13,779 nucleotides of DNA from a virus (Duplodnaviria > Heunggongvirae > Uroviricota > Caudoviricetes). This document shows, piece by piece, positions 1-13,779 of this stretch; position 1 is the first letter of the stretch; each line of letters starts with the position of its first letter. The translations under genes were made by a program, and so were the position numbers. The stretch spans positions 1 to 13,779 of the IMG/VR virus record IMGVR_UViG_2534682222_000007; one strand, 5' to 3'. The notes beneath the pieces were generated by a model. That model made no database searches. It was not told the origin of the DNA and worked only from the letters and a program-made list of their open reading frames with translations.

Positions 1-1169
1 ACGCGACCCAGGATCAGGCCGTAACTGATGCCGTTGCGCAGCGTCTTCAGCGCGCGGCGTTGCAGACGGTCGATGCCGTTCTGCTCGTAGTACAGCGGGT
101 TAACAGTGGTGTTTGACCCGTTGATGATTTCGTTGGCCAGATCCAGCTCAAGGTTGATTGCAGTCCATGCTACTGAGTACCAGTAGTTGAACGGATTGCC
201 GTCCAGCATGTGGCCTGCCACCAGCATTTTGTTGCTCAGCCCACCTTCCGCGGCGGTACCGACGTAGTTGATGCTGTTATCCTGGAGCTGCTTTAGGAGC
301 GTGCCATTACCTTCGACCGGATACTCTGTAACCCCGTAACCAAATCGGTACGCCATCGGTGGCACCATGTTTGACGATCCAGGGTCGTTTGCCAGCGAGG
401 ACTGGAACGGGAACGCCATGGAAAACTCGCCTGCTGGGATGTTTGTTGACTCCACTCCCGCAAACACAGATTTGTTTTTGGTGGCGACCCACGCCGGGTA
501 GGTGGCGATCGTGGTGGTGACAAAGAAATACACCAGTGACGCCGGGCTGGTATACAGGCCAGTCAGGGTTTTAAACGTCGTCTCACCGTCCCACTCGCGC
601 GGCACCAGATACGAGAAGAATTTCTGGTAGGTGTTACCCAGAGAAATGTCTTCATCGATGAAGTCAGCCAGTGCAGCCACAGCAGCAGCGACAGACACGT
701 CGCCCAGCTCCAGCACGTAGACCGCGCGGGTAGTTCCCTGAGCCCAGAACGTGGTGTTCATCTCGATGATTTCGTTTGCCGCTACGGTTTTCACCGTACC
801 CATAACTGTTGCCGTTCCTGGGTCTGTAGCCAACGGATAAGTGAAGGCGGTAGAAGTGGTCACAGTGGCGGTTACGGCGCGGTTATAAGCTGCTGGAGTA
901 ACGCCAGAGACAACCAGCGGGATAGTGTTGCCAACGTTCCAGCCATGCGCTGCCGAGAGGGTCACCGTGACCACGCCGGTTGCCCAGGTGATAGTTGAAA
1001 TAGTTTTAGCCGGTGAGGTGATATCCTTCAGATCGTCTTTCGTCGTCAGGAGCTGGTACTCACCTGCAGCCAGGGTTGTTCCGCCCATGGAGATCATCGC
1101 GCCGGATTTGAGCAGCTGAGAGGGCTTCGGTGGATTGGTCACCGAGACGTTAATGTTAACAATTGCCAT
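1..1169 (-). CDS. Phage virion structural protein, partial (ATG at 1167-1169, C-terminus runs past window position 1); Ig-like Ala/Thr/Gly-rich domain near the N-terminus
   Basis: Manual translation of the minus strand from the ATG at 1167-1169 (MAIVNINVSVTNPPKPSQLL...) stays open to position 1 (about 389 codons). GGAG sits about 10 nt upstream. The gene is not in the supplied ORF track because it has no stop inside the window. Residues about 56-128 resemble the C-terminal domain of the 4554..5414 protein. Function (tail or neck) is not resolved. Confidence 0.5.
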   Translation of the reverse strand, partial: MAIVNINVSVTNPPKPSQLLKSGAMISMGGTTLAAGEYQLLTTKDDLKDITSPAKTISTITWATGVVTVTLSAAHGWNVGNTIPLVVSGVTPAAYNRAVTATVTTSTAFTYPLATDPGTATVMGTVKTVAANEIIEMNTTFWAQGTTRAVYVLELGDVSVAAAVAALADFIDEDISLGNTYQKFFSYLVPREWDGETTFKTLTGLYTSPASLVYFFVTTTIATYPAWVATKNKSVFAGVESTNIPAGEFSMAFPFQSSLANDPGSSNMVPPMAYRFGYGVTEYPVEGNGTLLKQLQDNSINYVGTAAEGGLSNKMLVAGHMLDGNPFNYWYSVAWTAINLELDLANEIINGSNTTVNPLYYEQNGIDRLQRRALKTLRNGISYGLILGR

Positions 1170-1173
1170 TTAT

Positions 1174-2115
1174 TTATTTCTCCGGGTAAATGGACGGAAT
1201 CGCTGACGTGATCAGCCTGCGCGCGACATTCCGCATGCGCTGCTGGTAATAGTTGACTTTGAACTTGATGGTTTTTCTCATGGCGATGATGTTCAGCTCG
1301 TTCTGCGTGACGCGCTCGTCCTGAACGACCGGGATATTCATCACGCCCATTTCCGCGTCATCGCCGAGCGTGTACTGCTGTACGTACCTCAGGAAATCTT
1401 CAACTCCGGCATTGCGCAGGCCAGTAATGGAGATCGTCACATCCTCGGAAACCAGCTGATACTGGTTCTGCTGCTCATCAAGGTAAAAGCTCCCGGCAAT
1501 CGGCGCGGTGTTGCTGCACTTCACCGTTGCATACGGCGGAGACAGGTTCTGCGTCGACAGCATGGCCGGGAACATAGGCATGTACTGACTCAGCGTCAGC
1601 CATACCGGCAATGAACTCGAAACCACCACATCAGCCAGATCGATGTCATCTGCAGAGTTGATGATCTGCGATCGCATGTAGGGGAATATTGCCTCACCTG
1701 TGTAGTGGTAGAGGTTGGCCGGTTCGTTCAACCCGGTGCGCCGGGAGAAGGAAAACTGAAGGCCAAAGAACTCGCCGATATACAGGACATCAGATCCGAT
1801 ATCGTTGAACGGGTCGATATCCGCCTGCGCGGTAAAAGTTACGACGTTCCGGTCGTAGAGTTGTTCATCGCCCTGTATGGTCTCGGTCGTCAGGTGCAGA
1901 TAACCTTTGACATCGACCGTATCTGGCTCGCTGCTCGGGTCGTCCGACAGAACAGACGCTTTCACCCAGAAGACGAAACCATCAAGCGGGAGAACCTTGC
2001 GGATATACTTCGTGAACGTGACCACCTGAAAGCGGCTCAGGTCATCAAGACCCTGCGTCAGCGTGGCGTTAAGCTCGGTTTTTGCAGTTTGCTGCAACTC
2101 ATCCAGGGAAGGCAT
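1174..2115 (-). CDS. Hypothetical phage virion-associated protein (313 aa)
   Basis: Long minus-strand ORF with an ATG start at 2113-2115, overlapping the upstream gene by 16 nt and tightly packed in the structural operon. No motif recognised by eye. Confidence 0.5.
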   Translation of the reverse strand: MPSLDELQQTAKTELNATLTQGLDDLSRFQVVTFTKYIRKVLPLDGFVFWVKASVLSDDPSSEPDTVDVKGYLHLTTETIQGDEQLYDRNVVTFTAQADIDPFNDIGSDVLYIGEFFGLQFSFSRRTGLNEPANLYHYTGEAIFPYMRSQIINSADDIDLADVVVSSSLPVWLTLSQYMPMFPAMLSTQNLSPPYATVKCSNTAPIAGSFYLDEQQNQYQLVSEDVTISITGLRNAGVEDFLRYVQQYTLGDDAEMGVMNIPVVQDERVTQNELNIIAMRKTIKFKVNYYQQRMRNVARRLITSAIPSIYPEK

Positions 2116-2533
2116 TTAGCACCCCGCTCACCCAGGCGCGCATAGCGGCCTGATAAGTTCCGGTATCGATGAATGACGGGCGCGGTGGCCCCTTTTTGTT
2201 CTTGAATCGCCGGGAGATGCCGTCCAGCGCGCGGCGCGTAGGCACACCAGGTAATCCGTTCATTTCGGTGTTGTCGAGGAAGGCGACAAACAGGTCATGG
2301 ATCCGTGACATTGACTCTGCCAGAGGGTCCCTTAACGGCGGCGCGCCAGCCAGCATATTTTCAAGATTTGCGGCGAGGTCTTTACTCATCAGGTCGGCGA
2401 TGTCGTTTCCGTACCTGTCAAAAAAGGTCTGCATAATCTGGTATTTTTCTTCCAGATATTCAGCAACATCCCCTGTCGTGGTGTTCTCATCTTCGTAGGG
2501 AAGGTCGATAACACCAAGATGAAAGGTGATCAT
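2099..2533 (-). CDS. Hypothetical phage protein (144 aa), possibly head-tail joining or virion morphogenesis
   Basis: ORF 2099..2545 re-set to the ATG at 2531-2533 (MITFHLGV...), which forms an ATGA overlap with the stop of the upstream gene. Its position after the capsid gene is the only basis for the functional guess. Confidence 0.45.
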   Translation of the reverse strand: MITFHLGVIDLPYEDENTTTGDVAEYLEEKYQIMQTFFDRYGNDIADLMSKDLAANLENMLAGAPPLRDPLAESMSRIHDLFVAFLDNTEMNGLPGVPTRRALDGISRRFKNKKGPPRPSFIDTGTYQAAMRAWVSGVLNAFPG

Positions 2534-2958
2534 GACAGCCCCCACAAACTACCGAACTGCTGGGCAATCATCAGATAGCGGCGTCCCCAGGGGTCCTGCA
2601 ACATTTGCAGATCGGCCAGAGACAAATCTTTGAAGAAGTCAGGCACCAGACGCTGCGCGCTGGTTGAGTTATCCCCGGCCCCCGTTATCACGCCAGCCTT
2701 GAAATTGTTAAGGCCATACTCTTTCCTGAACTCGGCGAATACCGATTCCGTGCCATAGTTGACCAGGAATGACGCGCCCAGGTTGTACACGGCAACGGTG
2801 TACAGATTCGGCGTGACGCACGCGATATCAGGGTTTACCCACTCAACCGCGCCGCCATACGCCAGGGTGAAAGACGGCGAGTCGTCGGGAACCTGCGCGG
2901 CGGTAACGCCCATGTCAGTTCGAACGAATTCGATGAATCCCGACAGGCTCGTTGTCAT
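2530..2958 (-). CDS. Hypothetical phage protein (142 aa), possible head-tail connector or head completion protein
   Basis: Minus-strand ORF with an ATG at 2956-2958 in ATGA overlap with the upstream stop. Translational coupling within the morphogenesis operon. Confidence 0.45.
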   Translation of the reverse strand: MTTSLSGFIEFVRTDMGVTAAQVPDDSPSFTLAYGGAVEWVNPDIACVTPNLYTVAVYNLGASFLVNYGTESVFAEFRKEYGLNNFKAGVITGAGDNSTSAQRLVPDFFKDLSLADLQMLQDPWGRRYLMIAQQFGSLWGLS

Positions 2959-3437
2959 TTTTTCTTGCTCCCGGATTTTTCAGTCACGATTGTTTCGTTA
3001 ACCGTTGGGGTGTCTTCGCTGTCTTCGCGGCCTTTCGCCTGCTCCGCGCTGACTTCCATTTCGCCGGAATAGCCGGTACCGCTTTCGCGCAGAGAACTAT
3101 CCAGAGCCGCTACGGATGCCTGGCGACGGCCGTGGGCGCCACGGGTCAGGTGAATATCGTTATCGCGGATTGCTTTTTCGATTACCGGCGCTGATACAGG
3201 CTTGTTTAGGCTGTAGCACAGGCCGACAAACGCCTGGCTCTGGTCGATTTTTGTCGAGTCAACCAGACCATAAACCTGATGGTGCTGCACCACCGCTTCA
3301 ATCTCTTCAGTTGTGCCATCCAGTACCATCATCTGGTCGCCGTGGTTAATCGGGATCTGAATAAGGCGGCCGGTCTCCAGCTTGCGATAGGCGAAAATCT
3401 GGCGCTGCTTGGTGGTGTTAGCGATATAGAGTTTCAT
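2955..3437 (-). CDS. Hypothetical phage protein (160 aa) with an acidic/Lys-rich, probably disordered C-terminal tail
   Basis: ATG at 3435-3437 with GAGGG about 7 nt upstream, immediately after the terminator that follows the capsid gene. The C-terminus (...EDSEDTPTVNETIVTEKSGSKKK) is low-complexity. Confidence 0.5.
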   Translation of the reverse strand: MKLYIANTTKQRQIFAYRKLETGRLIQIPINHGDQMMVLDGTTEEIEAVVQHHQVYGLVDSTKIDQSQAFVGLCYSLNKPVSAPVIEKAIRDNDIHLTRGAHGRRQASVAALDSSLRESGTGYSGEMEVSAEQAKGREDSEDTPTVNETIVTEKSGSKKK

Positions 3438-3450
3438 TGGTTACCCTCGT

Positions 3451-3484
3451 AAAAAAGCCCCTGCTGAGTTTCCCCGGCAGAGGC
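3451..3484 (-). terminator. Candidate intrinsic terminator after the major capsid gene (likely partial)
   Basis: On the minus-strand RNA, an 8-bp GC-rich stem (plus coordinates 3457-3464 pairing with 3477-3484, one G-U pair), a 12-nt loop, then UUUUUU (plus A-run 3451-3456). It lies between the capsid stop (3506) and the next start (3437). Confidence 0.5.
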
Positions 3485-3505
3485 TTAACCACTTCAAAGA
3501 ATGAA

Positions 3506-4537
3506 TCAGGCGCTGTACGCCATGGACAGGATGGTGATTGCTTCCGGACGAACTGCCCAGCCTGCGGTAGAACGCATTTCGGACAGAACATCGATGGCAC
3601 CACCAGCGATCGGCGTCGGAATCTCACGCGGCGCGGCCATGTCGGTAAACATCAGCGCGTTCGCGGCAAGAGACGGGGTCAGCTTGGCGAATTCGTTGGT
3701 GTTCACAGTCGAGTTGACCATTGGCACTTCGACCTCAGGGATGGTGATTACCACCGCATCGGTACCGCCAGCGCCAGCGCCGATCAATGTATCGTCATAC
3801 ACCCAGTCAACCTGGACGTTTGCGCCTTTCAGCACTTCTTTCACCGTGCCGCCGACGGTGTCAGTACCACCACCAGGACGCTGGTAAGAAGTCAGCTGAA
3901 CGATCTGCTGAATCTCCATGGCACCGAGGACGCGCTGCGGCCCCAGGATAACAACACGCTGCTGGCGACCCAGCTGCATGGTGCGGGTCAGTGCTGCCTG
4001 CACGTGGCCCAGAAGATATACCGCCATCTGCCCGTGGTCATAGGTTAGCACGGTGGTGTTGCTGTTGCTGTCAGGAGGCAGGGACTCGGTAGTCGCGCCA
4101 GCGGTGTTCAGCAGGCCTTCACCACCAGCAGGGTTCATGCCATACAGCAGAGCAGAGCGCAGTTGCTGGAAGATGCCCTGACGCATACCCAGACGCTGGG
4201 CTTCCGGCAGTGCAAAGTTCCAGTTACCGGCAGCGGCCATGTCATGGTGATCGTAGATACCACGGCAGCGGAACAGGTAGGTTGGGGTTGAAATCATCTT
4301 CGCATCCAGCGCCACGCTCGGCAGTTGGTTACCGTTACCGGACTGACTGGAAGTGGTCTGGGTGCGAATATCCAGGCGGCGCATGTAGACGTACTGATCT
4401 CCTACGCCGAGACGGACTTGCGGGTTACCGCTGGCGATGGTTTCAAACGCACCTGACGCCTGCTGGTAACCAATGATCATCTCCGGCGCGATGTACGACG
4501 GATTGACGATGGTGTAGCTGGGGGTAATTGCAGCCAT
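3506..4537 (-). CDS. Putative major capsid protein (343 aa)
   Basis: ATG at 4535-4537 with GGAG upstream. Size and position (after scaffold and decoration-like genes, followed by a terminator) fit a major capsid protein. Family assignment is from memory of similar phage clusters, not a search. Confidence 0.6.
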   Translation of the reverse strand: MAAITPSYTIVNPSYIAPEMIIGYQQASGAFETIASGNPQVRLGVGDQYVYMRRLDIRTQTTSSQSGNGNQLPSVALDAKMISTPTYLFRCRGIYDHHDMAAAGNWNFALPEAQRLGMRQGIFQQLRSALLYGMNPAGGEGLLNTAGATTESLPPDSNSNTTVLTYDHGQMAVYLLGHVQAALTRTMQLGRQQRVVILGPQRVLGAMEIQQIVQLTSYQRPGGGTDTVGGTVKEVLKGANVQVDWVYDDTLIGAGAGGTDAVVITIPEVEVPMVNSTVNTNEFAKLTPSLAANALMFTDMAAPREIPTPIAGGAIDVLSEMRSTAGWAVRPEAITILSMAYSA

Positions 4538-4553
4538 TTAATTCAGCTCCCGA

Positions 4554-5414
4554 TTAAAGTAAGACCAGCGCGCAGCTGTCGGTGTTATTCCAGGTCAGGA
4601 AACCAGTCGCGCTGTCATAGCTGACAGTCTTGGAGTTGCCTGATTCGATGGCGAGCACTTTTACCGGCAGCGTGATGTCGGAAAGCGTAACTGCGCCGAT
4701 GGTGCCCTGCGTGGTTGCAGCGCCGCCTGGTGCAGTTGCCGGTGCATAGGTGAAGGTCGTTGTGTTCACGACTGAAAGCACGACTACTGTGCCGTTGTAC
4801 GCCGCAGGAGCGACGCCGCTGATTTTCACGTACTGACCAGCAGTCAGGCCATGAGCTGAAGCGGTTACCGCTGTCGCCACACCATTGGCATAGGTCACTG
4901 CTGTTGTCGCAATATCAGAACCGGCGAAACCGGCCGCCGCCGCAGTGGTGATCTGGTTGTTCACGAAGTCCCAGGCCAGAGGCGTTTTCACTGACGCGCC
5001 GGAGGTGCCAAGCGCAACAACCTGCGCAGAAGCTTTCAACGGAACGCGCATGTTGGAGCCCAGGCGGTAGTACGAAACGCTCATGCCTGATGCGTACAGC
5101 GGAACCGGTGACTGCGGAGTGGTCAGGCCGTTGTGAGCCTGATTGAAGACAGTGAAGCCTTCCAGCTCGGCAACAGACACAGCGCGACGGATGTAAGAAC
5201 CGCGAGGGCTTGAACTGGTGCCAGGCAGAAGCTCAGCAACTGGCAGACCGCCCCAGAGAGGTTTGTTTTCCGTTGCCGCCACAGTACCCGCCGCCAGGTT
5301 AAAGCGGTTAGCCGGGTCATCAAGCGCCACGCCCTGAATATAACCGTCGGACTGCACACCGAAGGAGCCAAGCGCATTCGTGGTTGCCATCGGGTTAAGA
5401 GATAAGTTAGCCAT
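4554..5414 (-). CDS. Putative head decoration / accessory structural protein (286 aa) with a C-terminal Ig-like domain
   Basis: ATG at 5412-5414, sited between the scaffold and capsid genes (the position lambda D occupies). The C-terminal region (...VTASAHGLTAGQYVKISGVAPAAYNGTVVV...TFTYAPATAPGG...) is Ala/Thr/Gly-rich and paralogous to the N-terminal domain of the 1..1169 protein. Confidence 0.45.
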   Translation of the reverse strand: MANLSLNPMATTNALGSFGVQSDGYIQGVALDDPANRFNLAAGTVAATENKPLWGGLPVAELLPGTSSSPRGSYIRRAVSVAELEGFTVFNQAHNGLTTPQSPVPLYASGMSVSYYRLGSNMRVPLKASAQVVALGTSGASVKTPLAWDFVNNQITTAAAAGFAGSDIATTAVTYANGVATAVTASAHGLTAGQYVKISGVAPAAYNGTVVVLSVVNTTTFTYAPATAPGGAATTQGTIGAVTLSDITLPVKVLAIESGNSKTVSYDSATGFLTWNNTDSCALVLL

Positions 5415-5429
5415 GCTTGAGAGCTCCCG

Positions 5430-7052
<1,623 letters not shown>

Positions 7053-7061
7053 TTAATGCTC

Positions 7062-7892
7062 CTATGCTGATTTCATAGACGCCATGAACTTCTGCCCCTT
7101 CTGGGTCAGCATGTGTTCAGGAATACTCCGGAGGTTGTACAGATAGGTTACGTAACACCGGCAAAAAACCTCTTCTCCGGGCTGCGTAATTTCATCGAGA
7201 TAACCGGAAGGCCCCACCTTCACGTAACCGTTTTTTTGTGCCCAGTTACCGCGGATGAGATAGACCACCTTATCGCGCTCTTTGTGATCTTCCCGGTAGT
7301 CATAACCTGCCTGCCGCCAGTGACTATGCCACTCTGCAGCTATGGCGTTATTACTGGCAGCTATGATGTTGTCGATGTTTGCAATGAGTTTATGGTTCTG
7401 ATCAATCATCACCCGACGCGCTTCAAAATCAATTTGCAAGGCGCTTTTCTGAATGTGATCACAGTTGTAATTAACCCCGCTTTTGGATGATGGAGATAGT
7501 CCACCTCCAACGTAATCCTGCACAGGGATGCTGGTAGCCCACCCGCTAAATCTCTGGACTGTTTTGTTTATCGCGCCTGTACGATTTAACTTAATTAAGT
7601 CGGCGCTAGCCAAGATGCGTCTATCAAGCTCGCTTCTTAACTTAGGCTCCATGTAATTCAGAGTAAATCGAGACAAGCCTGGATGCCGATCCAGCGCCTT
7701 AGCCCTGTTTATCTGCATTTCATAGGTTGATCGAAGCTTATCTGACACCCTTGATATGTAGTCATCATGGGTTTCGCTTTCCGCCGCCTGGCGAATAATT
7801 CCCTGCCATCGCTCCAGCTCCTCTCTCGAGGTATAGCCATTGCGCAAGAAGAATTTAACCGCCTCCCTTACTGTTCTGGAAAATTTGCTCAT
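7062..7892 (-). CDS. Putative head morphogenesis / minor head protein (Mu F / SPP1 gp7-like, 276 aa)
   Basis: ATG at 7890-7892 in ATGA overlap with the portal stop. Position directly after the portal gene and a C-terminal CRC motif (EEVFCRCYVTY) that I recall as conserved in Mu F-like proteins. Confidence 0.55.
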   Translation of the reverse strand: MSKFSRTVREAVKFFLRNGYTSREELERWQGIIRQAAESETHDDYISRVSDKLRSTYEMQINRAKALDRHPGLSRFTLNYMEPKLRSELDRRILASADLIKLNRTGAINKTVQRFSGWATSIPVQDYVGGGLSPSSKSGVNYNCDHIQKSALQIDFEARRVMIDQNHKLIANIDNIIAASNNAIAAEWHSHWRQAGYDYREDHKERDKVVYLIRGNWAQKNGYVKVGPSGYLDEITQPGEEVFCRCYVTYLYNLRSIPEHMLTQKGQKFMASMKSA

Positions 7893-9307
7893 AGCATCAT
7901 CCCGCCGCCAGGCTCTTCAGCTTTCGGCGGCTCAGGCGGTGGGTTTTCCTTCAGAGAGTCGTAATCGAGGTTAAGCCGCTGAGGGAATAGGTTCTCGTTG
8001 GCGTTGGCGTTTTCACACGCCCACTCGATCAGCGTCGCGCGGTTTTCCGGGTCAGCAGTGAGTTGCGGCAGCACCACTTCCAGCATACTGACGATCGCCT
8101 TAAAGCGCGTTTCGTCGACCTTCACCTTCTCGCTTTCCGGCTCTTTCAGGGGGGATGGCCAGCGATATTCGAAGTTGTTTATCCAGCTCGCGAAATACAC
8201 GCTGTAGGTGTTTTTCAGCTCCGGGAAGTCAGCACGCAGCGACTGGAAGAATTCAATGCTCCAGGCGCGGTACTGGCACACGCGGATGAAGAACGCATAA
8301 AGCGGGTCCAGCCACTCGCGGATGTTGTCGATGTACACCGCTACAGCGCGTGCATCTTCAGTGCCTTCACCGAAGCCCTGGGCGAACGTCTCGGAGTTGA
8401 GGATGATTGCCGGCATGTCAGCGGCGGCGGCCACGTTCTCGAGAATGTGCTTACGCGCAGAGTCGAGAGGTTTTTCCAGGTTGCTCAGGTCGATTGACTC
8501 GATACCATCCTGCGGTCCAATCTGCAGGACCTCACCAGTTTTACCTCGCTTCAGCAGCATGCGCTTGAATCCACCTAGCGCCTGCATAACTTTGTTAACA
8601 ACCGCGCCAGCGCCTGCAATTTTGGTAATTAGCAGTCCGCCTTTAACCGCAACCATGTCATCAGTGCGCATGGTCTGAATGAAGGATTTCAGCGGGAAAA
8701 GCGCACGCTGATACACACTGCGTCCGGTGAACCCGAACGCCGCAGGGTTGTACGCGAGATAAATAGGATCTTCGTTCTGCGCGACTATGCATCGCGATTT
8801 GTGGTATGGCTTGCCAGCCACACGAATGCCTTCGACTTTCTGGAAGTCATGGGCGTTTGGGTCCTGGTTCAGCACGATACTGCCCGCGGTATTCAACGGA
8901 TCGAGAATGTTAAAGCTGACGTTGTGCTTGTACAGCGTGCGGTAGTCCAGCGATTCATTCGGCTCCTGGTTATCCACCAGCATTGCTATCGCTGATACGC
9001 CGTAAATACGGGCTATGCGCGCGGCGTTGGCGATGTGCTGGTTCGCACCCATCTCTTTCCATTCGCGCTCGAACGCGTCGCGCAGGCGCTGCTCAAGGCC
9101 GTACGACTGGGCAACATGCACGGTGCGCGGCTCATTCATCGCCATTTTAATCGGGCGATCCACCATCTTTCCGCCCAGGGGGTGGAAGAGATAAATCGTC
9201 TTGCAGGCCTGATACCCAGCCGAGGAACCAGGCTGAATATCGTCGCTGTCCAGCAATGCCATCAACTCTGGAGAGCAGCTGCCGATTTCGAAATCGTCTT
9301 CGTTCAT
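7889..9307 (-). CDS. Putative portal protein (472 aa)
   Basis: ATG at 9305-9307, immediately downstream of the large terminase gene, with size typical of a portal and an acidic C-terminus. Assignment is by synteny; no diagnostic motif was verified. Confidence 0.6.
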   Translation of the reverse strand: MNEDDFEIGSCSPELMALLDSDDIQPGSSAGYQACKTIYLFHPLGGKMVDRPIKMAMNEPRTVHVAQSYGLEQRLRDAFEREWKEMGANQHIANAARIARIYGVSAIAMLVDNQEPNESLDYRTLYKHNVSFNILDPLNTAGSIVLNQDPNAHDFQKVEGIRVAGKPYHKSRCIVAQNEDPIYLAYNPAAFGFTGRSVYQRALFPLKSFIQTMRTDDMVAVKGGLLITKIAGAGAVVNKVMQALGGFKRMLLKRGKTGEVLQIGPQDGIESIDLSNLEKPLDSARKHILENVAAAADMPAIILNSETFAQGFGEGTEDARAVAVYIDNIREWLDPLYAFFIRVCQYRAWSIEFFQSLRADFPELKNTYSVYFASWINNFEYRWPSPLKEPESEKVKVDETRFKAIVSMLEVVLPQLTADPENRATLIEWACENANANENLFPQRLNLDYDSLKENPPPEPPKAEEPGGGMML

Positions 9308-9318
9308 TGGTTCTCTCG

Positions 9319-10650
9319 TCAGATTGCGTCGCCGCTGCCGAAGGCGATGATCAGCCCGTAGGTGTAATCATCGAGCAAATCGTCGGCGCGCTTGTGCGCG
9401 TTCTTATCGGCAAGGTGGAATCGTGAAACCTGCTTATGCAGATGGTTTGCTGTTTCGCCCTTGAAGACGGCCGTCTTCTCGTAGGCGTATCGGGATATTT
9501 TCGCCAGCCCGCGGTAGTGATAACCGGAGGCCATAATGGCGCGTTCGTCCTTCCCTTTGCTGGTCAGGGCGGATTCAATTTTGTTGACCGGCCATCCCAG
9601 GCTTTCACCTTTCTGCAGGAGGATGCTGCCCATGCTGGCGTCTTCGATGAAAACGCCGAGGCTGCCATTTACAGCGACGCACTGGCCGGATAGCTCATTC
9701 AGCCGGGTGAAAACAGACGGAATCCACTCTTCCAGCAGCGCGCCGTCGATCTGCACTACATCCCAGTCGAGTATGGTCAGGCGCTGAATGCCGGGCCGGG
9801 TGTCGACGGCGTAGTAAACTACCGCCGTGCCGTCGTGCTCAGTACCGCCCTTAACGGCGGTATCCATGACAGCGAAAACGGCCTGGCACATCTCAGGGTA
9901 ATCGACTGGCTGATCCTGGTTTTCACCCTCGAACCATTTGCGGACGTCGAACAGTGACGCAGCGGACCAGTCGACGAACTCGGCCAGGAACTCCTGCCGG
10001 AAAACGCGAGGGTCGTTGTTCTGTCGCTCTTTCTCCAGTTCCTCAGGAGGAACGAAGGGGTTGGATGACGTCGGAGCATGATGCTCATGGAAGCCGAGGT
10101 CTTTGTTATGGCAGATGGCATAGAAGAAGTTTTCTTCGTCCACACCGTCAGGCGTTGAGAATACGTAGGCCCGGCCTTTTGTCGTCAGTAGCGTCGGCTT
10201 AATCGACTTCGGCCAGATTTCCTTCAGCATTTCAGGCGACTTGGTAAACGCCGCCTCATCGATCAGGATAATTTCGTACTCACGACCACGACCGGCCAGT
10301 TTGTTGTCGTTGGTGACCCAGAAGTCAATCTTCCCGCCGTTCTTCAGCAGCAGGCGCTTTTCCTGCCGGCTGAAGCTCTTTTTCAGCGGCAGCAGGATTT
10401 CTTCCAACTTGTCGTAGATCTCCTGGTACTGGCGATACTCGGCAGTGAAGATACCGACCCGACCGCCCAGCTCGATATCCATGCCCGGGCGCCGGAACTG
10501 CGACGTTGCGTAGGTCACCGCAGCGCTCGACAGCATGAAGGTTTTCCCCCAGCGTCGACCACAGCGAACCGCATTCAACTGGTGATCCCAGGAGTCAGAC
10601 CAGACCGTTAACTGCCCGTTGTGTAGCGTGGGTAGGTAAATGTCGGCCAT
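9319..10650 (-). CDS. terL: Terminase large subunit (443 aa)
   Basis: Walker A-like motif VRCGRRWGKT near the N-terminus, Walker B-like YEIILIDEAAF, and C-terminal acidic motifs (AVMDTAV, VFIEDAS, DDLLDDYTYG) consistent with an RNase H-like nuclease domain. Start ATG at 10648-10650, 3 nt after the small-subunit stop. Confidence 0.85.
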   Translation of the reverse strand: MADIYLPTLHNGQLTVWSDSWDHQLNAVRCGRRWGKTFMLSSAAVTYATSQFRRPGMDIELGGRVGIFTAEYRQYQEIYDKLEEILLPLKKSFSRQEKRLLLKNGGKIDFWVTNDNKLAGRGREYEIILIDEAAFTKSPEMLKEIWPKSIKPTLLTTKGRAYVFSTPDGVDEENFFYAICHNKDLGFHEHHAPTSSNPFVPPEELEKERQNNDPRVFRQEFLAEFVDWSAASLFDVRKWFEGENQDQPVDYPEMCQAVFAVMDTAVKGGTEHDGTAVVYYAVDTRPGIQRLTILDWDVVQIDGALLEEWIPSVFTRLNELSGQCVAVNGSLGVFIEDASMGSILLQKGESLGWPVNKIESALTSKGKDERAIMASGYHYRGLAKISRYAYEKTAVFKGETANHLHKQVSRFHLADKNAHKRADDLLDDYTYGLIIAFGSGDAI

Positions 10651-10653
10651 GAT

Positions 10654-11370
10654 TTATCTTCCCGGGATTGGCAGCGAGTTATGCACGACGATCGCGTTAT
10701 CCTTGTCACCGTCTTTCAGCGCATCGATTTCGAGCTCAACCTTTTCGGTCGCGGCTTCGCGGTAAGCGGCATCAACGCGCTGTTTGATAATCGCCGCCTT
10801 GGTGTACTCCAGCGACTCAATGCGGGCCGTGTTACGGTGCATGGCTTTTTGCGCAGATGAAATTAGCTCGTGAAGATTATTGGCGGTATCGCCATCAGCT
10901 ATTTCAAGCTCAGTCTGCCAGCGGCCAATATTTTCAGCAGCGGTAAGGTTCGCCGCACGCAACCAGAAAAGCTCATCATCAAGAGTGAGCGCCTGAGCAT
11001 CCTCGGTAATGGCATCAGATAGAAGCATTCGGCGTCCATAGCCACCATGCTTCAATGCGTTCTGATTTCCGGGTCTGGAATTATAATGAGCGCGTTTCGT
11101 TTCTGGTGAGTTTGATGGTTTTGCGACTTCGCAGTTATCCACTAAGCCCGCTGGTGGCTTACTCTTTGCCACTTTCTCCTTTTGCGAATTCGCATTCTTT
11201 TTCGCAGCTTCTTTCTGCGATTTCGCACCATACGACGTTACTTTGATGTAGCGTTTCGCAGATGCGTAATTCAGTCCCTGAGCCTGGCACCAGTCTTTGG
11301 GGGAAATACCTGTTTTGGCATGCTCGGCGAGGAACTGGTCTTGCAGTGCTCCCCAGTCCGGTTTTGCCAT
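10654..11370 (-). CDS. terS: Putative terminase small subunit (238 aa)
   Basis: Immediately upstream of and translationally coupled to the large terminase gene. The N-terminal segment looks HTH-like (ISPKDWCQAQGLNYASAKRYIKV). GAGGT ribosome-binding site 8 nt upstream of the ATG at 11368-11370. Confidence 0.55.
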   Translation of the reverse strand: MAKPDWGALQDQFLAEHAKTGISPKDWCQAQGLNYASAKRYIKVTSYGAKSQKEAAKKNANSQKEKVAKSKPPAGLVDNCEVAKPSNSPETKRAHYNSRPGNQNALKHGGYGRRMLLSDAITEDAQALTLDDELFWLRAANLTAAENIGRWQTELEIADGDTANNLHELISSAQKAMHRNTARIESLEYTKAAIIKQRVDAAYREAATEKVELEIDALKDGDKDNAIVVHNSLPIPGR

Positions 11371-11432
11371 AATACTTACCTCACGTTGACATTATCGAAG
11401 CCCCTCAGTGAAGGGCTCCTGTAATGCCGCGA

Positions 11433-11957
11433 TCAGCCAATAAGTAATTCCGGCTGCGTTACCTGCATGATGTGCTCATGCTCGAGCTCCAGGACGCGCT
11501 TCTCTTTCTTCCGCTCGTTCATCAAACGGCTTCCGATCGTGCCTTTCAGCTTTGAGCGCGTTTCTTTGATGGCGTAGCGGTGCTGCATTTCTTCGCCCAT
11601 CGCCATGCGTCGGTTTAGCTGCTCGGCCATCCAGTTAAAGGCGGCGATGTATTGCTCTTTAATCGCGGTCGCCGTTTTTCCGGTGAAACCCATTACAAGC
11701 ATCATCCAGCCATCTTTCGTGATGTTGTACATCAGGCGCATTTCGCCTTTCTTATCGAGGTATTCAACGGGCTCAAAATTGAGCCGGTTAAAATCAGGGG
11801 AGCAATCTGACTCCAGCCGCTTGATAGTGCGAAGAACGTTTTTATGCGCCTTGCCGAAATAGCGGGCGATCTTCATGGACGTCGTGATGACCTTTCCGTT
11901 GGATGGCAAAACCATTTCGCGGAAGTCGAAGGCCGGAATAACTGACGGATTATTCAT
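11433..11957 (-). CDS. rha: Rha-family phage regulatory protein (about 174 aa)
   Basis: The N-terminal sequence (MNNPSVIPAFDFREMVLPSNGKVITTSMKIARYFGKAHKNVLRTIKRL...FNRLNFEPVEYLDKKGEMRLMYNITKDGWMMLVMGFTGKTA) matches my recollection of the Rha domain. The track ORF 11433..11993 starts on a non-ATG codon; the first ATG at 11955-11957 is preferred. Confidence 0.7.
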   Translation of the reverse strand: MNNPSVIPAFDFREMVLPSNGKVITTSMKIARYFGKAHKNVLRTIKRLESDCSPDFNRLNFEPVEYLDKKGEMRLMYNITKDGWMMLVMGFTGKTATAIKEQYIAAFNWMAEQLNRRMAMGEEMQHRYAIKETRSKLKGTIGSRLMNERKKEKRVLELEHEHIMQVTQPELLIG

Positions 11958-12091
11958 AGCGTCTTTACCTTTTAGAAAGTGAGCCTGTCTCACAGAAAAG
12001 CCGCCCGAGAGAGGTCGCCACCTATAACGGCATTTCTCAGGCTCGCTTACTGAAAGGCTCTCGTTGATGTACGCGTGAGATGCGCAGACAT

Positions 12092-12116
12092 AAAAAAGCC
12101 CGACCGAAGTCAGGCT
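12092..12116 (-). terminator. Intrinsic terminator downstream of Rz/Rz1
   Basis: Minus-strand RNA: 8-bp stem (one G-U pair) closed by a UUCG tetraloop, followed by UUUUUU (plus A-run 12092-12097); 20 nt after the Rz stop at 12136. Confidence 0.6.
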
Positions 12117-12135
12117 CTGTTATTTGGGTGACGAA

Positions 12136-12609
12136 TCACTTAAGACACTGCTCTTTGATGTAGTCCTGCATGCCGCGAATCATTTTGTCAGCGGTTGCGA
12201 TTCCGTCCCGGTGATCGAAATAATTCCGTCGAGCGTCTGGAGTAAGTTCGGGGGCTCCTGCATCATCCACGCCGGTGGAGGAGGTGGCTTTTGGCACTCC
12301 AGGGCAGGTTGCAGCGATGCGCAGCCGTTTAGCGCCAGAATCGACATCACGACGCAAATCGTTAATGGTCTTTTTAGCATCGGACAATTCCTTCGTGTAT
12401 TTGGCATCCAGTGCAGCGACATCGCGCTGACGGGTCTGCATGTCTTTAATGGTGGCGGTCGCCAGGAGGAGTTTCTCAGTGGCCTTATCGCGCTGGTCTC
12501 TGTAAGTGATGGCGTTGTCGCGGTAGTGGTTCACGAAGAAAGCCAGTGCGCCGATTAACGCCAGCACCAGCAACTGCAGCCAGTAACGCTTAACCAGTGC
12601 GCTAATCAT
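12136..12609 (-). CDS. Rz: Rz-type i-spanin (157 aa)
   Basis: N-terminal transmembrane segment followed by [12 protein letters not shown]...[15 protein letters not shown], closely resembling lambda Rz as I recall it. ATGA overlap with the endolysin stop. Confidence 0.85.
12180..12380 (-). CDS. Rz1: Rz1-type o-spanin lipoprotein (66 aa), embedded in Rz in the +1 frame
   Basis: ORF entirely inside Rz. Start re-set to the ATG at 12378-12380 (AAGGA about 9 nt upstream): [24 protein letters not shown]... with a signal peptide, lipobox-like LNGC, and the PPPPPAW motif characteristic of lambda Rz1. Confidence 0.8.
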
Positions 12610-13055
12610 GACAGGAACAGAGCTCGCTCTGCCTTGCGGCGATTCGTGAGCCCCGGCATCACCTTTCCGCCTGATTTATTCCAGCGCAGAAATTCATCTG
12701 CCGCGCCTTTTATATCGCCAGCATTCAGCTTTTTCAGCAGTGTAGATGTGGAAAGAGCACGCGACCCAACGTTGTAAGCGAACGACACCAGTGCGTCGAA
12801 CTGGCCTTGTGTCAGCTTCACCCTGACAACTTTCAGCACGTCATTCTCATAACCAACAAGCCCTGTTTTCAGAAGCCTGTCAGCGGTTTGCTGGTCGATA
12901 GTCATACCGCGCTTTACTGGCTTTCCGTCAACCGGATGGGTCCAGCCATAGCCGATGGTCCACGGCGCATCTCCCGTTCCGGGGTCGGGGTAAGCAGTCA
13001 GCCGACAACCTTCAAATTTTTTTATCAGAGCAATTCCGTCAGGACTGGTTTGCAT
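12606..13055 (-). CDS. R: Endolysin, T4/P22-type lysozyme (GH24), soluble (149 aa)
   Basis: Catalytic E-D-T arrangement in [26 protein letters not shown] and a C-terminus ([11 protein letters not shown]) like P22 gp19. The track ORF begins at a TTG (13082); the ATG at 13053-13055 with GGGAG 6-7 nt upstream is preferred, giving a 17-nt overlap with S. Confidence 0.85.
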
Positions 13056-13362
13056 CGTCAACTCCCGCCTTTTTTGCTGCAAGTTTTTTAATCAGATTGC
13101 CGATCGAATCGGTGCCGATGTATCCAATAAAGACGCTGGCTATGTAGGCGAGGTTGCTGCTCAGGCCGATAAAGTCCAGAAGGTCACGAACGAACCAGGC
13201 AATCATCGCGCACATCAGCGCATCAATTAGCGTTTTTGTTACCGCGCCGCCGTTATAGCGACCACGCAGATACGCCATGATAAAAGCCAGCATTGCACCA
13301 ATACCCTGCTCCTTGGCGGCAAGTAGCGCAGCGATGAAATCTTGTTTGTATGGCATTTTCAT
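13039..13362 (-). CDS. S: Class I holin, lambda S-like (107 aa) with a dual-start Met1-Lys2-Met3 motif
   Basis: [39 protein letters not shown]... is near-identical in pattern to lambda S as I recall it. GGAGG ribosome-binding site upstream. The track ORF (147 aa) is an N-terminal over-extension. Confidence 0.9.
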
Positions 13363-13372
13363 AGGCCTCACC

Positions 13373-13386
13373 TCCGATTTTTCGGA
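13373..13386 (-). promoter_or_regulatory. sdi-like stem-loop overlapping the S ribosome-binding site
   Basis: Minus-strand RNA 5'-UCCGA-AAAA-UCGGA-3' (plus 13373-13377 pairing with 13382-13386); the 3' arm overlaps the GGAGG Shine-Dalgarno just before the tandem start codons. Confidence 0.35.
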
Positions 13387-13470
13387 TGGCGCTGTGTGTG
13401 TTTGTAGGGGAAAGGCCGTCAGACTCTGATTGCTACATGGCATCTGAAAATGATATCTGCGGCCTGCAAT

Positions 13471-13494
13471 AAAAAAGCCCACGGCGCGGTGGGC
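13471..13494 (-). terminator. Intrinsic terminator within the late leader, about 110 nt upstream of S
   Basis: Minus-strand RNA: perfect 6-bp GC-rich stem GCCCAC/GUGGGC (plus 13477-13482 with 13489-13494), 6-nt loop, then UUUUUU (plus A-run 13471-13476). Confidence 0.5.
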
Positions 13495-13749
13495 AATAGA
13501 GGGTAGTGCGTTGAGCTTTTGCTCTTATGGTCCTGGTAGGTATTTGGTGTGTGGTGACCGGTGCTGTGTTTTCCGGCATGTAAATGAACTACCCGTCGTC
13601 GCCATGGTGAGCCTTTACCTCACCATCTAGCTGATAAGTTAGCGCATCAGCCTGCGCATTCACCACAACGATAATTGCACTGCGCCTGTTTCGGTTAGCG
13701 TAACGGGATTAACCGGTCACCCCAATGCAATTATCTGTTGTGCAGATAC

Positions 13750-13778
13750 AAAAAAGCCCCGAGCTATTAACTCAGGGC
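13750..13778 (-). terminator. Intrinsic terminator, candidate tR' analogue (end of a 6S-like late leader RNA)
   Basis: Minus-strand RNA: 8-bp stem (plus 13756-13763 with 13771-13778, one G-U), 7-nt loop, then UUUUUU (plus 13750-13755). It sits about 390 nt upstream of S, matching the tR'-to-S spacing in lambda; the flanking sequence resembles lambda tR' from memory. Confidence 0.5.
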
Positions 13779-13779
13779 C

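Follow-up and report, generated by a model that had tools for sequence, protein, structure and literature searches.

The leader between the antitermination gene Q and the holin gene S is among the best-studied regulatory regions, and the roughly 400 nucleotides (nt) that follow the terminator tR' are usually seen as a spacer or as a landing pad for morons. StxS of the Stx2 phage Sp5 is a functional short RNA of the pR'-tR' type, which is constitutive in the lysogen and terminated just after the late promoter (PMC7547250). STnc100 (RF02076) is located in the late leader of phage 933W, 75 nt after stx2B and before S, and is convergent with AsxR (PMC12370729). PasD1 of enteropathogenic E. coli (PasD1/PasD2, also EcOnc13) is an Hfq-associated RNA of 173 nt, which was found by Hfq RIL-seq (in which interacting RNAs are ligated and sequenced; PMC8550237, Table S6). 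PasD and STnc100 have already been linked to each other (bioRxiv 10.64898/2026.05.13.724894). Here we describe the 417 nt upstream of S in a 13,779-nt stretch of DNA from a Caudoviricetes virus (positions 1 to 13,779 of IMG/VR record IMGVR_UViG_2534682222_000007; this whole stretch is hereafter called the window). This region forms the leader of a late operon under Q antitermination and has a modular non-coding RNA cassette inside. The cassette follows the first terminator of the leader (T1) and consists of a hairpin (P0), a cloverleaf-like domain closed by a stem (P1), a tail and an intrinsic terminator (T2). On the basis of P1 covariation among the sequences compared, the cloverleaf-like domain is a real structured RNA family. 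The leader is otherwise largely ordinary, and the novelty lies in the dyads and the second terminator, which an initial annotation of the window, made from its letters and open reading frames (ORFs), had left unmapped.

The domain is arranged in the order of P1 5' strand, 3 nt (AAU), hairpin A, a variable arm (cargo arm), 2-3 nt (AAG) and hairpin B, which abuts the P1 3' strand. This topology is that of a cloverleaf, with two complementary loops, those of hairpins A and B, positioned to kiss. STnc100 and PasD are the nearest described relatives of this RNA, which itself falls outside the Rfam STnc100 family. STnc100 occupies the same slot and follows the same plan, namely GCAUGGUG-AAU-hairpin (stem ending UGGUG), variable hairpins, CCGGG-AGGCA-CCCGG abutting CACCAUGC, tail and terminator, but it lacks the GGCUGA/AUCAGC loop pair and, in its curated form, is restricted to a single fixed insert and to a narrow range of enterobacteria. 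PasD1 is located between a PF03589 Q gene and a holin gene and starts with GCAUGGUG-AAU-hairpin; its first base is the first base of the closing stem, and its proposed seed is in a single-stranded tail before an intrinsic terminator. PasD differs in that it has its own promoter-like site, no recognisable hairpin B and an unrelated tail sequence. The window copy has the architecture of both RNAs: a closing stem ending in UGGUG followed by AAU and a hairpin, a variable middle, the 3' strand, a single-stranded tail and a terminator. Common ancestry of the cloverleaf family with STnc100 and PasD is plausible from this comparison of sequences.

The cloverleaf RNA family and its copy in the window

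The middle of the leader matches, by blastn, 149 phage records of very different kinds, in short blocks of 80-100% identity within unannotated DNA. Four matches give the common plan 5'-GUUGUGGUG-AAU-GCGCA GGCUGA UGCGC-[variable]-AAG-CCGG AGAUCAGCA CCGG-C-CACCACAAC-3'. Exact core words were scanned against IMG/VR three times (at least 120 stretches each) and against species-representative genomes once (at least 120 stretches), and 349 elements were located in the retrieved loci, which are phages and prophages mainly of Proteobacteria. The exact 20-mer of hairpin A is present, among the matches listed, in Enterobacterales, Pseudomonas, Xanthomonadales, Burkholderiales, Rhizobiales and Deltaproteobacteria, and also in single metagenome-assembled genomes of other phyla. 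A 28-30-mer is present in 627 of 5426 complete E. coli genomes and is unannotated among the matches listed. The 28-mer was not found in the literature searched, and searches for boundary sequences or for prophage RNAs resembling tRNA brought up no relevant paper.

P1 was outside all search patterns, for which hairpins A and B were the anchors. Covariation was analysed in an alignment of 85 distinct scaffold sequences, from which the variable part was removed and five coding-like false matches were dropped by eye. Of the cells of this alignment, 89.9% are paired, as compared with 75.9% in shuffles (no value as high in 500 of them) and 29-44% after sliding of the partner. Each of the seven inner P1 pairs is paired in 90-98% of the sequences and is represented by three to five pair types, and the sequence of P1 is fully changed with pairing kept, for example in GGGAUUGGAU/AUCCAAUC, CACAGAAGCGG/CCGCUUCUGUG and GGGGAGCGGUCU/AGACCGCUCCCC. 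The stem of hairpin A is paired in 99.1% of cases, with GC, AU, CG and UA variants, and the family stem of hairpin B in 100%. The complementarity between the two loops (GCUGA/UCAGC) is kept in 99.5%. The best single evidence for a loop-loop contact, read from sequence, is an IMG/VR member (TCCGTTGTGGTGAATGCGTAGGTCGATGCGC...CCGGAGTTCGACACCGG) with a natural double compensatory change from GCUGA/UCAGC to GUCGA/UCGAC, which suggests that the two loops touch.

The cargo arm is 27-163 nt long and falls into 110 unrelated clusters among 237 elements, and the same cargo recurs with different flanks. We put forward only tentatively, as a possibility to which we give less than even weight, that the whole constitutes an undescribed family of phage scaffold RNAs, mainly of Proteobacteria, in which an invariant closing stem and two hairpins with complementary loops hold an exchangeable cargo arm of more than 100 types that are traded between phages, one of them mimicking helix 11 of 16S rRNA.

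In the window copy, the 28-nt 5' module matches the family consensus and is identical in 127 other copies. P1 is represented by a perfect 8-bp long-range pair (13550-13557 with 13660-13667), which is additional to the dyads given in the initial annotation. A covariance model of the family without cargo (R1) finds this copy with 39.5 bits (E 2e-9), in an alignment that wrongly closes P1 inside the cargo. The loop of hairpin B, AAAACACAGCA, is a degenerate form of the family loop AGAUCAGCA, in which only CAGC is still complementary to loop A, so that four of the five loop-loop pairs remain. The cargo also has an AUCAGC of its own (13634-13629, minus strand), which is complementary to loop A (GCUGAU) and is paired with loop A, instead of hairpin B, in the minimum-energy fold.

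The late leader around the cloverleaf domain

The leader is anchored by S and is followed by R (lysozyme) and Rz, which like S are identified by Pfam; the minus strand carries all genes at the S end of the window. The initial annotation, which saw no convincing ORF in the leader, holds in this respect: none longer than 48 amino acids (aa) lies wholly inside it. No tRNA or transfer-messenger RNA is detected in the leader by ARAGORN or the Rfam tRNA model, and nothing reaches the gathering score in an Rfam scan of it. Both minus-strand terminators, the 8-bp hairpin and the dyad with a 10-bp core are present at the positions first given for them. For the 276-nt segment 13745-13470, the fold is better than that of every one of 200 shuffles (z -3.3), and the 5' untranslated region (UTR) of S (13363-13470) folds no better than shuffles (z -1.0).

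The 417-nt leader is present in five complete E. coli genomes with 99.3-99.5% identity. It was extended upstream in a prophage of E. coli KCJ3K291 (NZ_CP054407.1; L001), which is 99.5% identical and for which the window position equals 22780 minus the L001 position. The initial annotation had assigned the leader to Q antitermination, had placed pR' and qut, as probable, just past the window edge and had proposed an extension to find Q and pR', the lack of which in the flank would have spoken against the assignment. The core of this assignment is borne out by L001. A 254-aa antitermination protein (PF03589 Q, E 8e-44) is encoded upstream and ends 104 nt before the window edge. The spacer that follows contains the promoter-like site TTTACA-17 nt-TAATCT and then AATGATGG (in a longer reading, GAAATCAATGATGG), and aligns with the lambda pause region TAAATT...AACGATGG (longer, TAAATT TGACTCAACGATGG, which holds the -10-like pause element). 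This promoter-like spacer is kept in two IMG/VR relatives (L077 and L236). A consensus promoter scan makes no call there, and the -10 hexamer matches at only three of six positions.

The base of the T1 stem coincides exactly with the window edge. T1 folds with -16.9 kcal/mol (z -4.4) and starts about 27 nt past the likely transcription start, so that the terminated RNA would be about 57 nt long. Its distance to S is 387 nt, as compared with about 400 nt in lambda, in agreement with the tR'-like spacing of about 390 nt originally proposed. The T1 sequence, AAGCCCTGAGTTAATAGCTCGGGGCTTTTTT, is found after at least five different late-promoter/Q types, including a lambda-type pR' (L310). Judged from sequence, T1 is the equivalent of tR', with pR' just outside the window. 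A terminator scan gives three sites, as compared with 1.5 +/- 1.1 in shuffles, a count that by itself is not above chance; T1 and T2 are taken as real because they are conserved in relatives, not because of the number of sites. StxS is likened to the predicted T1 RNA by layout; no sequence similarity between the two was seen, and none was tested for. The record of phage 933W annotates three possible terminators between pR' and stx2A (227-249, 430-458 and 886-909 of the retrieved locus L455), so that more than one terminator in such a leader is nothing unusual.

The leader resembles that of lambda in having the Q gene directly upstream, a promoter-like site with the pause-like motif A-A-N-G-A-T-G-G behind it, an intrinsic terminator at a distance of about 390-400 nt from S, and a homologous sequence after this terminator (TGCACAACAG-GTAAGAGCATTG...CAGTGCTCTTTCC-GTTGTG). 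It differs in that the Q on the window side is of PF03589, with no match to lambda-type Q families in the scan; the Q of lambda belongs to a different family. The terminated RNA of lambda (6S) is 194 nt, as compared with about 57 nt here, and the P1 domain of lambda is degenerate, without hairpin A.

The inverted repeat that the initial annotation reported, with a perfect 10-bp core and a gap of 46 nt, is real and longer than it had noted: the arms of this dyad, which forms P0, are 13 nt each (13670-13682 and 13723-13735) and are 92% complementary. P0 folds with -32.8 kcal/mol (z -5.7). The opinion that neither the dyads nor the second terminator can be mapped onto lambda does not hold. The dyad aligns base for base with lambda 44794-44806 and 44845-44857, directly after tR', where lambda has TATCTGCACAACAGGTAAGAGCATTG ... 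CCAGTGCTCTTTCCGTTGTGCTGAAT and the window GTATCTGCACAACAGATAATTGCATTG ... CAGTGCAATTATCGTTGTGGTGAAT; these blocks form invariant columns in an alignment of the window, lambda, CUS-3, HK629 and one IMG/VR contig. Two base pairs are changed on both sides between the window and lambda (UU/AA and GA/UC). Lambda shares with CUS-3 and HK629 a further hairpin, followed by a U-run, at about 120 nt upstream of S. The late leader of lambda looks like a decayed copy of the cloverleaf RNA family. In the family, 154 distinct cases have a hairpin immediately preceding the P1 domain, and each of its positions is represented by several pair types; these hairpins contain 189 G-U and 23 A-C appositions, in a partner search that slightly favoured G-U. 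As an observation on lambda itself, positions 44794-44914 (995-1115 of the retrieved locus L130) retain P0 together with the beginning of the P1 domain (GTTGTGCTGAAT, followed by CCGGAAGCAGAACCGG), and hairpin A is absent.

The tail occurs in about 15 variants, all of which keep the covarying small hairpin, a single-stranded UUACCCUCAU-like stretch and a terminator. The sequence of the terminator stem varies among these relatives, and the stem and the U-run are always kept. T2 itself folds with -11.2 kcal/mol (z -2.8). Since the tail is always kept together with a terminator, T2 belongs to the RNA cassette and is not an unexplained second tR'. Thus both tandem terminators of the initial annotation exist, but they are better read as tR' (T1) and the cassette's own terminator (T2). 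By analogy, the layout of the tail and T2 is that of the usual base-pairing small RNA (sRNA), with a candidate seed, a terminator hairpin and a U-tail.

Sister prophages and phage Omnitron share with the window the region from CCA (13547) to S with 98-99% identity. Upstream of CCA, they contain a tRNA-Asn gene in place of P0 and P1, and CCA is the 3' end of this tRNA. The initial annotation had stated that no moron is present, which is true for tRNA and toxin genes, but the slot that holds tRNA-Asn in a sister prophage holds a non-coding RNA cassette here.

The other elements of the family are found in recurrent genomic slots. In all of 36 elements with a tRNA gene within 500 nt, the tRNA is on the same strand. 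Most often, the gene upstream encodes a same-strand LexA-type cI repressor (59 cases) or a Q protein from one of two unrelated Pfam families (26 and 16 cases), and the downstream neighbours are lambda-type holins and lysozymes. A conserved partner protein, such as a reverse transcriptase, nuclease or ligase, was considered and rejected: no protein family recurs in distant genomes, and the genes nearby are the usual ones for repressor, Q, holin and lysozyme. Elsewhere the domain forms a unit by itself. The virulent phages ZCEC13 and KlebP_265 carry the cloverleaf RNA on the strand opposite to the structural genes, with a consensus promoter (TTGACA-17 nt) upstream; a strong terminator is located just downstream in ZCEC13, whereas KlebP_265 has the promoter only. 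In KlebP_265 (L005), two tandem P0 and P1 units with different cargo (2389-2830) lie directly upstream of tRNA-Ser, tRNA-Arg and tRNA-Met, opposite in strand to tail genes, and the consensus promoter is at 2184-2212. The commonest cargo type (51 of 237 elements) is located just downstream of cI on the same strand (L004 2395-2660 and L127 1500-1660; Stx2a phages, mEp460), and these copies should therefore be transcribed in lysogens.

Possible function and alternative explanations

The reading that we favour, with confidence a little above even, is that of a late leader with a structured small RNA that is processed or terminated and acts in trans. In a lysogen, polymerase from a constitutive late promoter would stop at T1 and yield a short RNA (about 57 nt) that would correspond to lambda 6S and StxS. 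The rare polymerases that leak past T1 would go on through P0, the cloverleaf domain and the tail as far as T2, which would thus lock S, R and Rz a second time. Once the prophage is induced, Q-modified polymerase would pass both terminators, and the structured RNA would be excised from the long late transcript. The cloverleaf domain may be a tRNA-like module for processing and stability, because it occupies the exact place of tRNA-Asn in the sister prophage. The tail, with a C-rich, anti-Shine-Dalgarno-like stretch beside a terminator, would act in trans as a base-pairing sRNA, as shown for PasD.

The domain resembles tRNA in its cloverleaf topology, in its closing stem of at least 7 bp and in its last hairpin stacked directly on the 3' strand; the loops of its first and last hairpins are complementary to one another and may be in contact. 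As with sRNAs linked to tRNA (3' trailer type), it is co-oriented with neighbouring tRNA genes, and tRNA-Asn replaces it at CCA. It differs from tRNA in that it is not detected as one, its loop-loop contact would consist of five Watson-Crick pairs, its 'anticodon arm' is the variable insert of 27-163 nt, and distant members lack CCA.

Several results weigh against this trans-acting reading or limit its basis. No sigma-70 promoter-like site is found inside the window leader, so that the window RNA can only arise from pR'. Complementarity to targets within the prophage is not above chance, with none of at least 12 nt. A U-run is present within 130 nt downstream in only about 38% of the elements. 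The Rfam STnc100 model gives 207.7 bits for true STnc100 in 933W, but only 20.1 bits (E 0.026, full-length; gathering score 47) for a canonical short-cargo member and no match to the window copy at E up to 10. Model R1, tried as a means of tying in STnc100, PasD and lambda, matches none of them, since it cannot bridge the insert. The conservation of hairpins A and B arises partly by construction, and their covariation is weaker evidence than that of P1 because both were search anchors. Within P1, G-U and A-C are balanced (11 to 8), and the strandedness of the RNA therefore rests on P0, tRNA co-orientation and the terminators. Finally, the minimum-energy fold of the window picks the extension of P0 by CACAAC/GUUGUG over P1, and the loop of hairpin B is degenerate, possibly through decay. 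For these two reasons the window copy may be partly decayed; the P0 extension and P1 may instead be alternating pairings.

A purely cis-acting leader is possible but rather unlikely. P0, P1 and the tail would then serve only the late mRNA, for example by admitting RNase III or RNase E, by stabilising the message or by timing the translation of S; T2 would be a second Q-dependent checkpoint, and there would be no trans-acting RNA. Such a function would agree with the layout tR'-P0-P1-hairpin-S, which is kept in lambda, CUS-3, HK629 and the window prophage, with the missing internal promoter, and with the extended P0 helix, which at about 20 bp is the most stable local structure. It accounts poorly for the occurrence of the same modules outside late operons, namely immediately behind genes for cI-type repressors (59 cases), next to clusters of tRNA genes, and opposite the structural genes of virulent Jedunavirus/Klebsiella phages, where they have a consensus promoter and, in ZCEC13, also a terminator.

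The cargo of the window copy raises another explanation, which is not exclusive of the trans-acting reading. The perfect 8-bp hairpin of the initial annotation (13604-13626) is exact (ATGGTGAG/CTCACCAT, 13604-13611 and 13619-13626) and sits within this cargo. At a relaxed threshold, the cargo core gives a 47-nt local match to the Rfam small-subunit (SSU) rRNA model (33.2 bits, E 1.2e-7; gathering score 50); it gives no full-length match at the gathering score and is a look-alike of one helix, not an rRNA gene. It is identical to E. coli 16S rRNA at 33 of 40 positions (243-282, helix 11); the helix is preserved by a paired change (UAGG/CCUA to AUGG/CCAU), and its closing stem has been built anew. 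The core matches helix 11 in sequence and structure, but is a 47-nt fragment with a re-made closing stem inside a phage RNA. The same helix 11-like cargo is present in nine other loci with different flanks. The look-alike might be a decoy that titrates a 16S-binding host factor (a ribosomal protein or an assembly or modification factor) or an rRNA-targeting nuclease, with the cloverleaf merely displaying it. The strength of the SSU match, the helix-preserving changes, and the persistence of the cargo in ten loci beside differing modules, with loop variants like those among real 16S sequences, would fit a decoy. We nevertheless regard this function as doubtful: only one of the 110 cargo clusters is rRNA-like, no binding partner is known, and the segment could be a captured rRNA fragment that is carried neutrally. 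The generalisation that all cargo arms mimic rRNA or tRNA was rejected, in that this one cluster alone matches the E. coli rrn operon beyond chance; two other short rrn matches are within chance after multiple testing. One IMG/VR element (L088) has in its cargo arm GGCGGTTCGATTCCTGC, which resembles a tRNA T-arm.

That the region serves at the DNA level as recombination linkers ('boundary sequences') for segment swapping among lambdoid phages, with incidental hairpins, is very improbable, since P1 pairing persists through complete sequence change, G-U exceeds A-C in P0 (189 to 23), loop sequences are invariant across phyla and co-orientation with tRNA genes is complete (36 of 36), even though the CUS-3 record annotates the flanks of the region as boundary sequences bsq3 and bsq4, identical cargo has different flanks and the mosaic junction is exactly at CCA. 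Such signatures are those of an RNA made from a single strand, and the conserved blocks may still recombine as a side effect.

Other candidates were tried and rejected. An anti-GcvB sponge like AgvB was considered, as CCACAACA fits the GcvB target consensus, but this stretch is the covarying P1 3' strand. The models of AgvB and AsxR (RF02702 and RF02703) give no match to the leader at E up to 10, and AsxR is readily found in 933W. Integron attC sites, miniature inverted-repeat transposable elements and enterobacterial repetitive intergenic consensus-like repeats have core sites that do not match, and the pairing here is specific to one strand. A classical riboswitch is not indicated, as the terminators do not overlap P1.

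If the tentative reading as a family of scaffold RNAs is true, phages would use the cloverleaf as a tRNA-like, nuclease-resistant platform for expressing decoys or regulators, at the two well-known insertion sites of morons (behind cI and behind pR'), and the late leader of lambda would be a decayed copy. Much of the spacer after tR' is a conserved structured RNA with strong covariation, present in about one-ninth of complete E. coli genomes and in many unrelated phages, with the sampled copies unannotated. The orphan prophage sRNAs STnc100 and PasD are linked, if weakly, to a much larger group with a common structural plan, and a route is suggested by which sRNAs may be made from long antiterminated transcripts via a tRNA-like processing module. 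The exchangeable cargo arm, including the rRNA helix mimic, may provide a handle on the RNA interplay between phage and host.

Feature coordinates and minor observations

The features of the leader are collected in Table 1.

Table 1. Features of the S end of the window, listed in the direction of transcription
Feature	Position	Strand	Description
T1, tR'-type intrinsic terminator	13750-13779	minus	stem 13779-13755 (11 bp), 3-nt loop, U6 to 13750
P0 hairpin	13670-13742	minus	arms GAUAAUUGCAUUG (13735-13723) and CAGUGCAAUUAUC (13682-13670), 40-nt variable insert between
CACAAC	13742-13737	minus	can lengthen the P0 helix by pairing with GUUGUG of P1
P1 domain, cloverleaf-like four-way junction	13550-13669	minus	P1 5' strand, AAU, hairpin A, cargo arm, hairpin B, P1 3' strand
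P1 5' strand GUUGUGGUG	13669-13661	minus	pairs with P1 3' strand, 7-8 bp
Hairpin A, GCGCA-GGCUGA-UGCGC	13642-13657	minus	loop nearly invariant in the family
Cargo	13641-13578	minus	variable arm between hairpins A and B
Cargo core, 16S rRNA helix 11 look-alike	13592-13638	minus	local Rfam SSU rRNA match
Hairpin B, G-CCGG-AAAACACAGCA-CCGG-U	13557-13577	minus	stem and position kept
P1 3' strand CACCACA	13556-13550	minus	abutted by hairpin B
Tail	13495-13549	minus	CCA, small hairpin, C-rich single strand running into T2
CCA, mosaic junction	13547-13545	minus	shared with tRNA-Asn-bearing relatives
Small tail hairpin GAGC-AAAA-GCUC	13524-13513	minus	covaries (CGGC/GCCG and GAGC/GCUC)
C-rich single-stranded stretch UACCCUCUAUUGCC	13505-13492	minus	enters T2
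T2, intrinsic terminator of the RNA cassette	13471-13494	minus	stem 13494-13477 (6-bp G+C), 6-nt loop, U6 13476-13471
5' UTR of S	13363-13470	minus	Shine-Dalgarno GGAGG 13375-13371; small upstream hairpin UCCG-AAAAA-CGGA; read from sequence
S holin gene	13039-13362	minus	PF05106, E 8.5e-30; 107 aa, MKM dual start; anchors the leader

Two observations concern genes outside the leader. An 80-aa ORF at 12180-12422 on the minus strand is out of frame within Rz and contains a lipobox (LALNGC) and a proline-rich stretch, as expected of Rz1. In the head-morphogenesis block of L001 (13683-17563, about 5217-9097 of the window), two large genes have RefSeq labels that are unusual at this place: one of 473 aa, 'anti-CBASS protein Acb1 family', and one of 539 aa, 'NUDIX domain-containing protein'.

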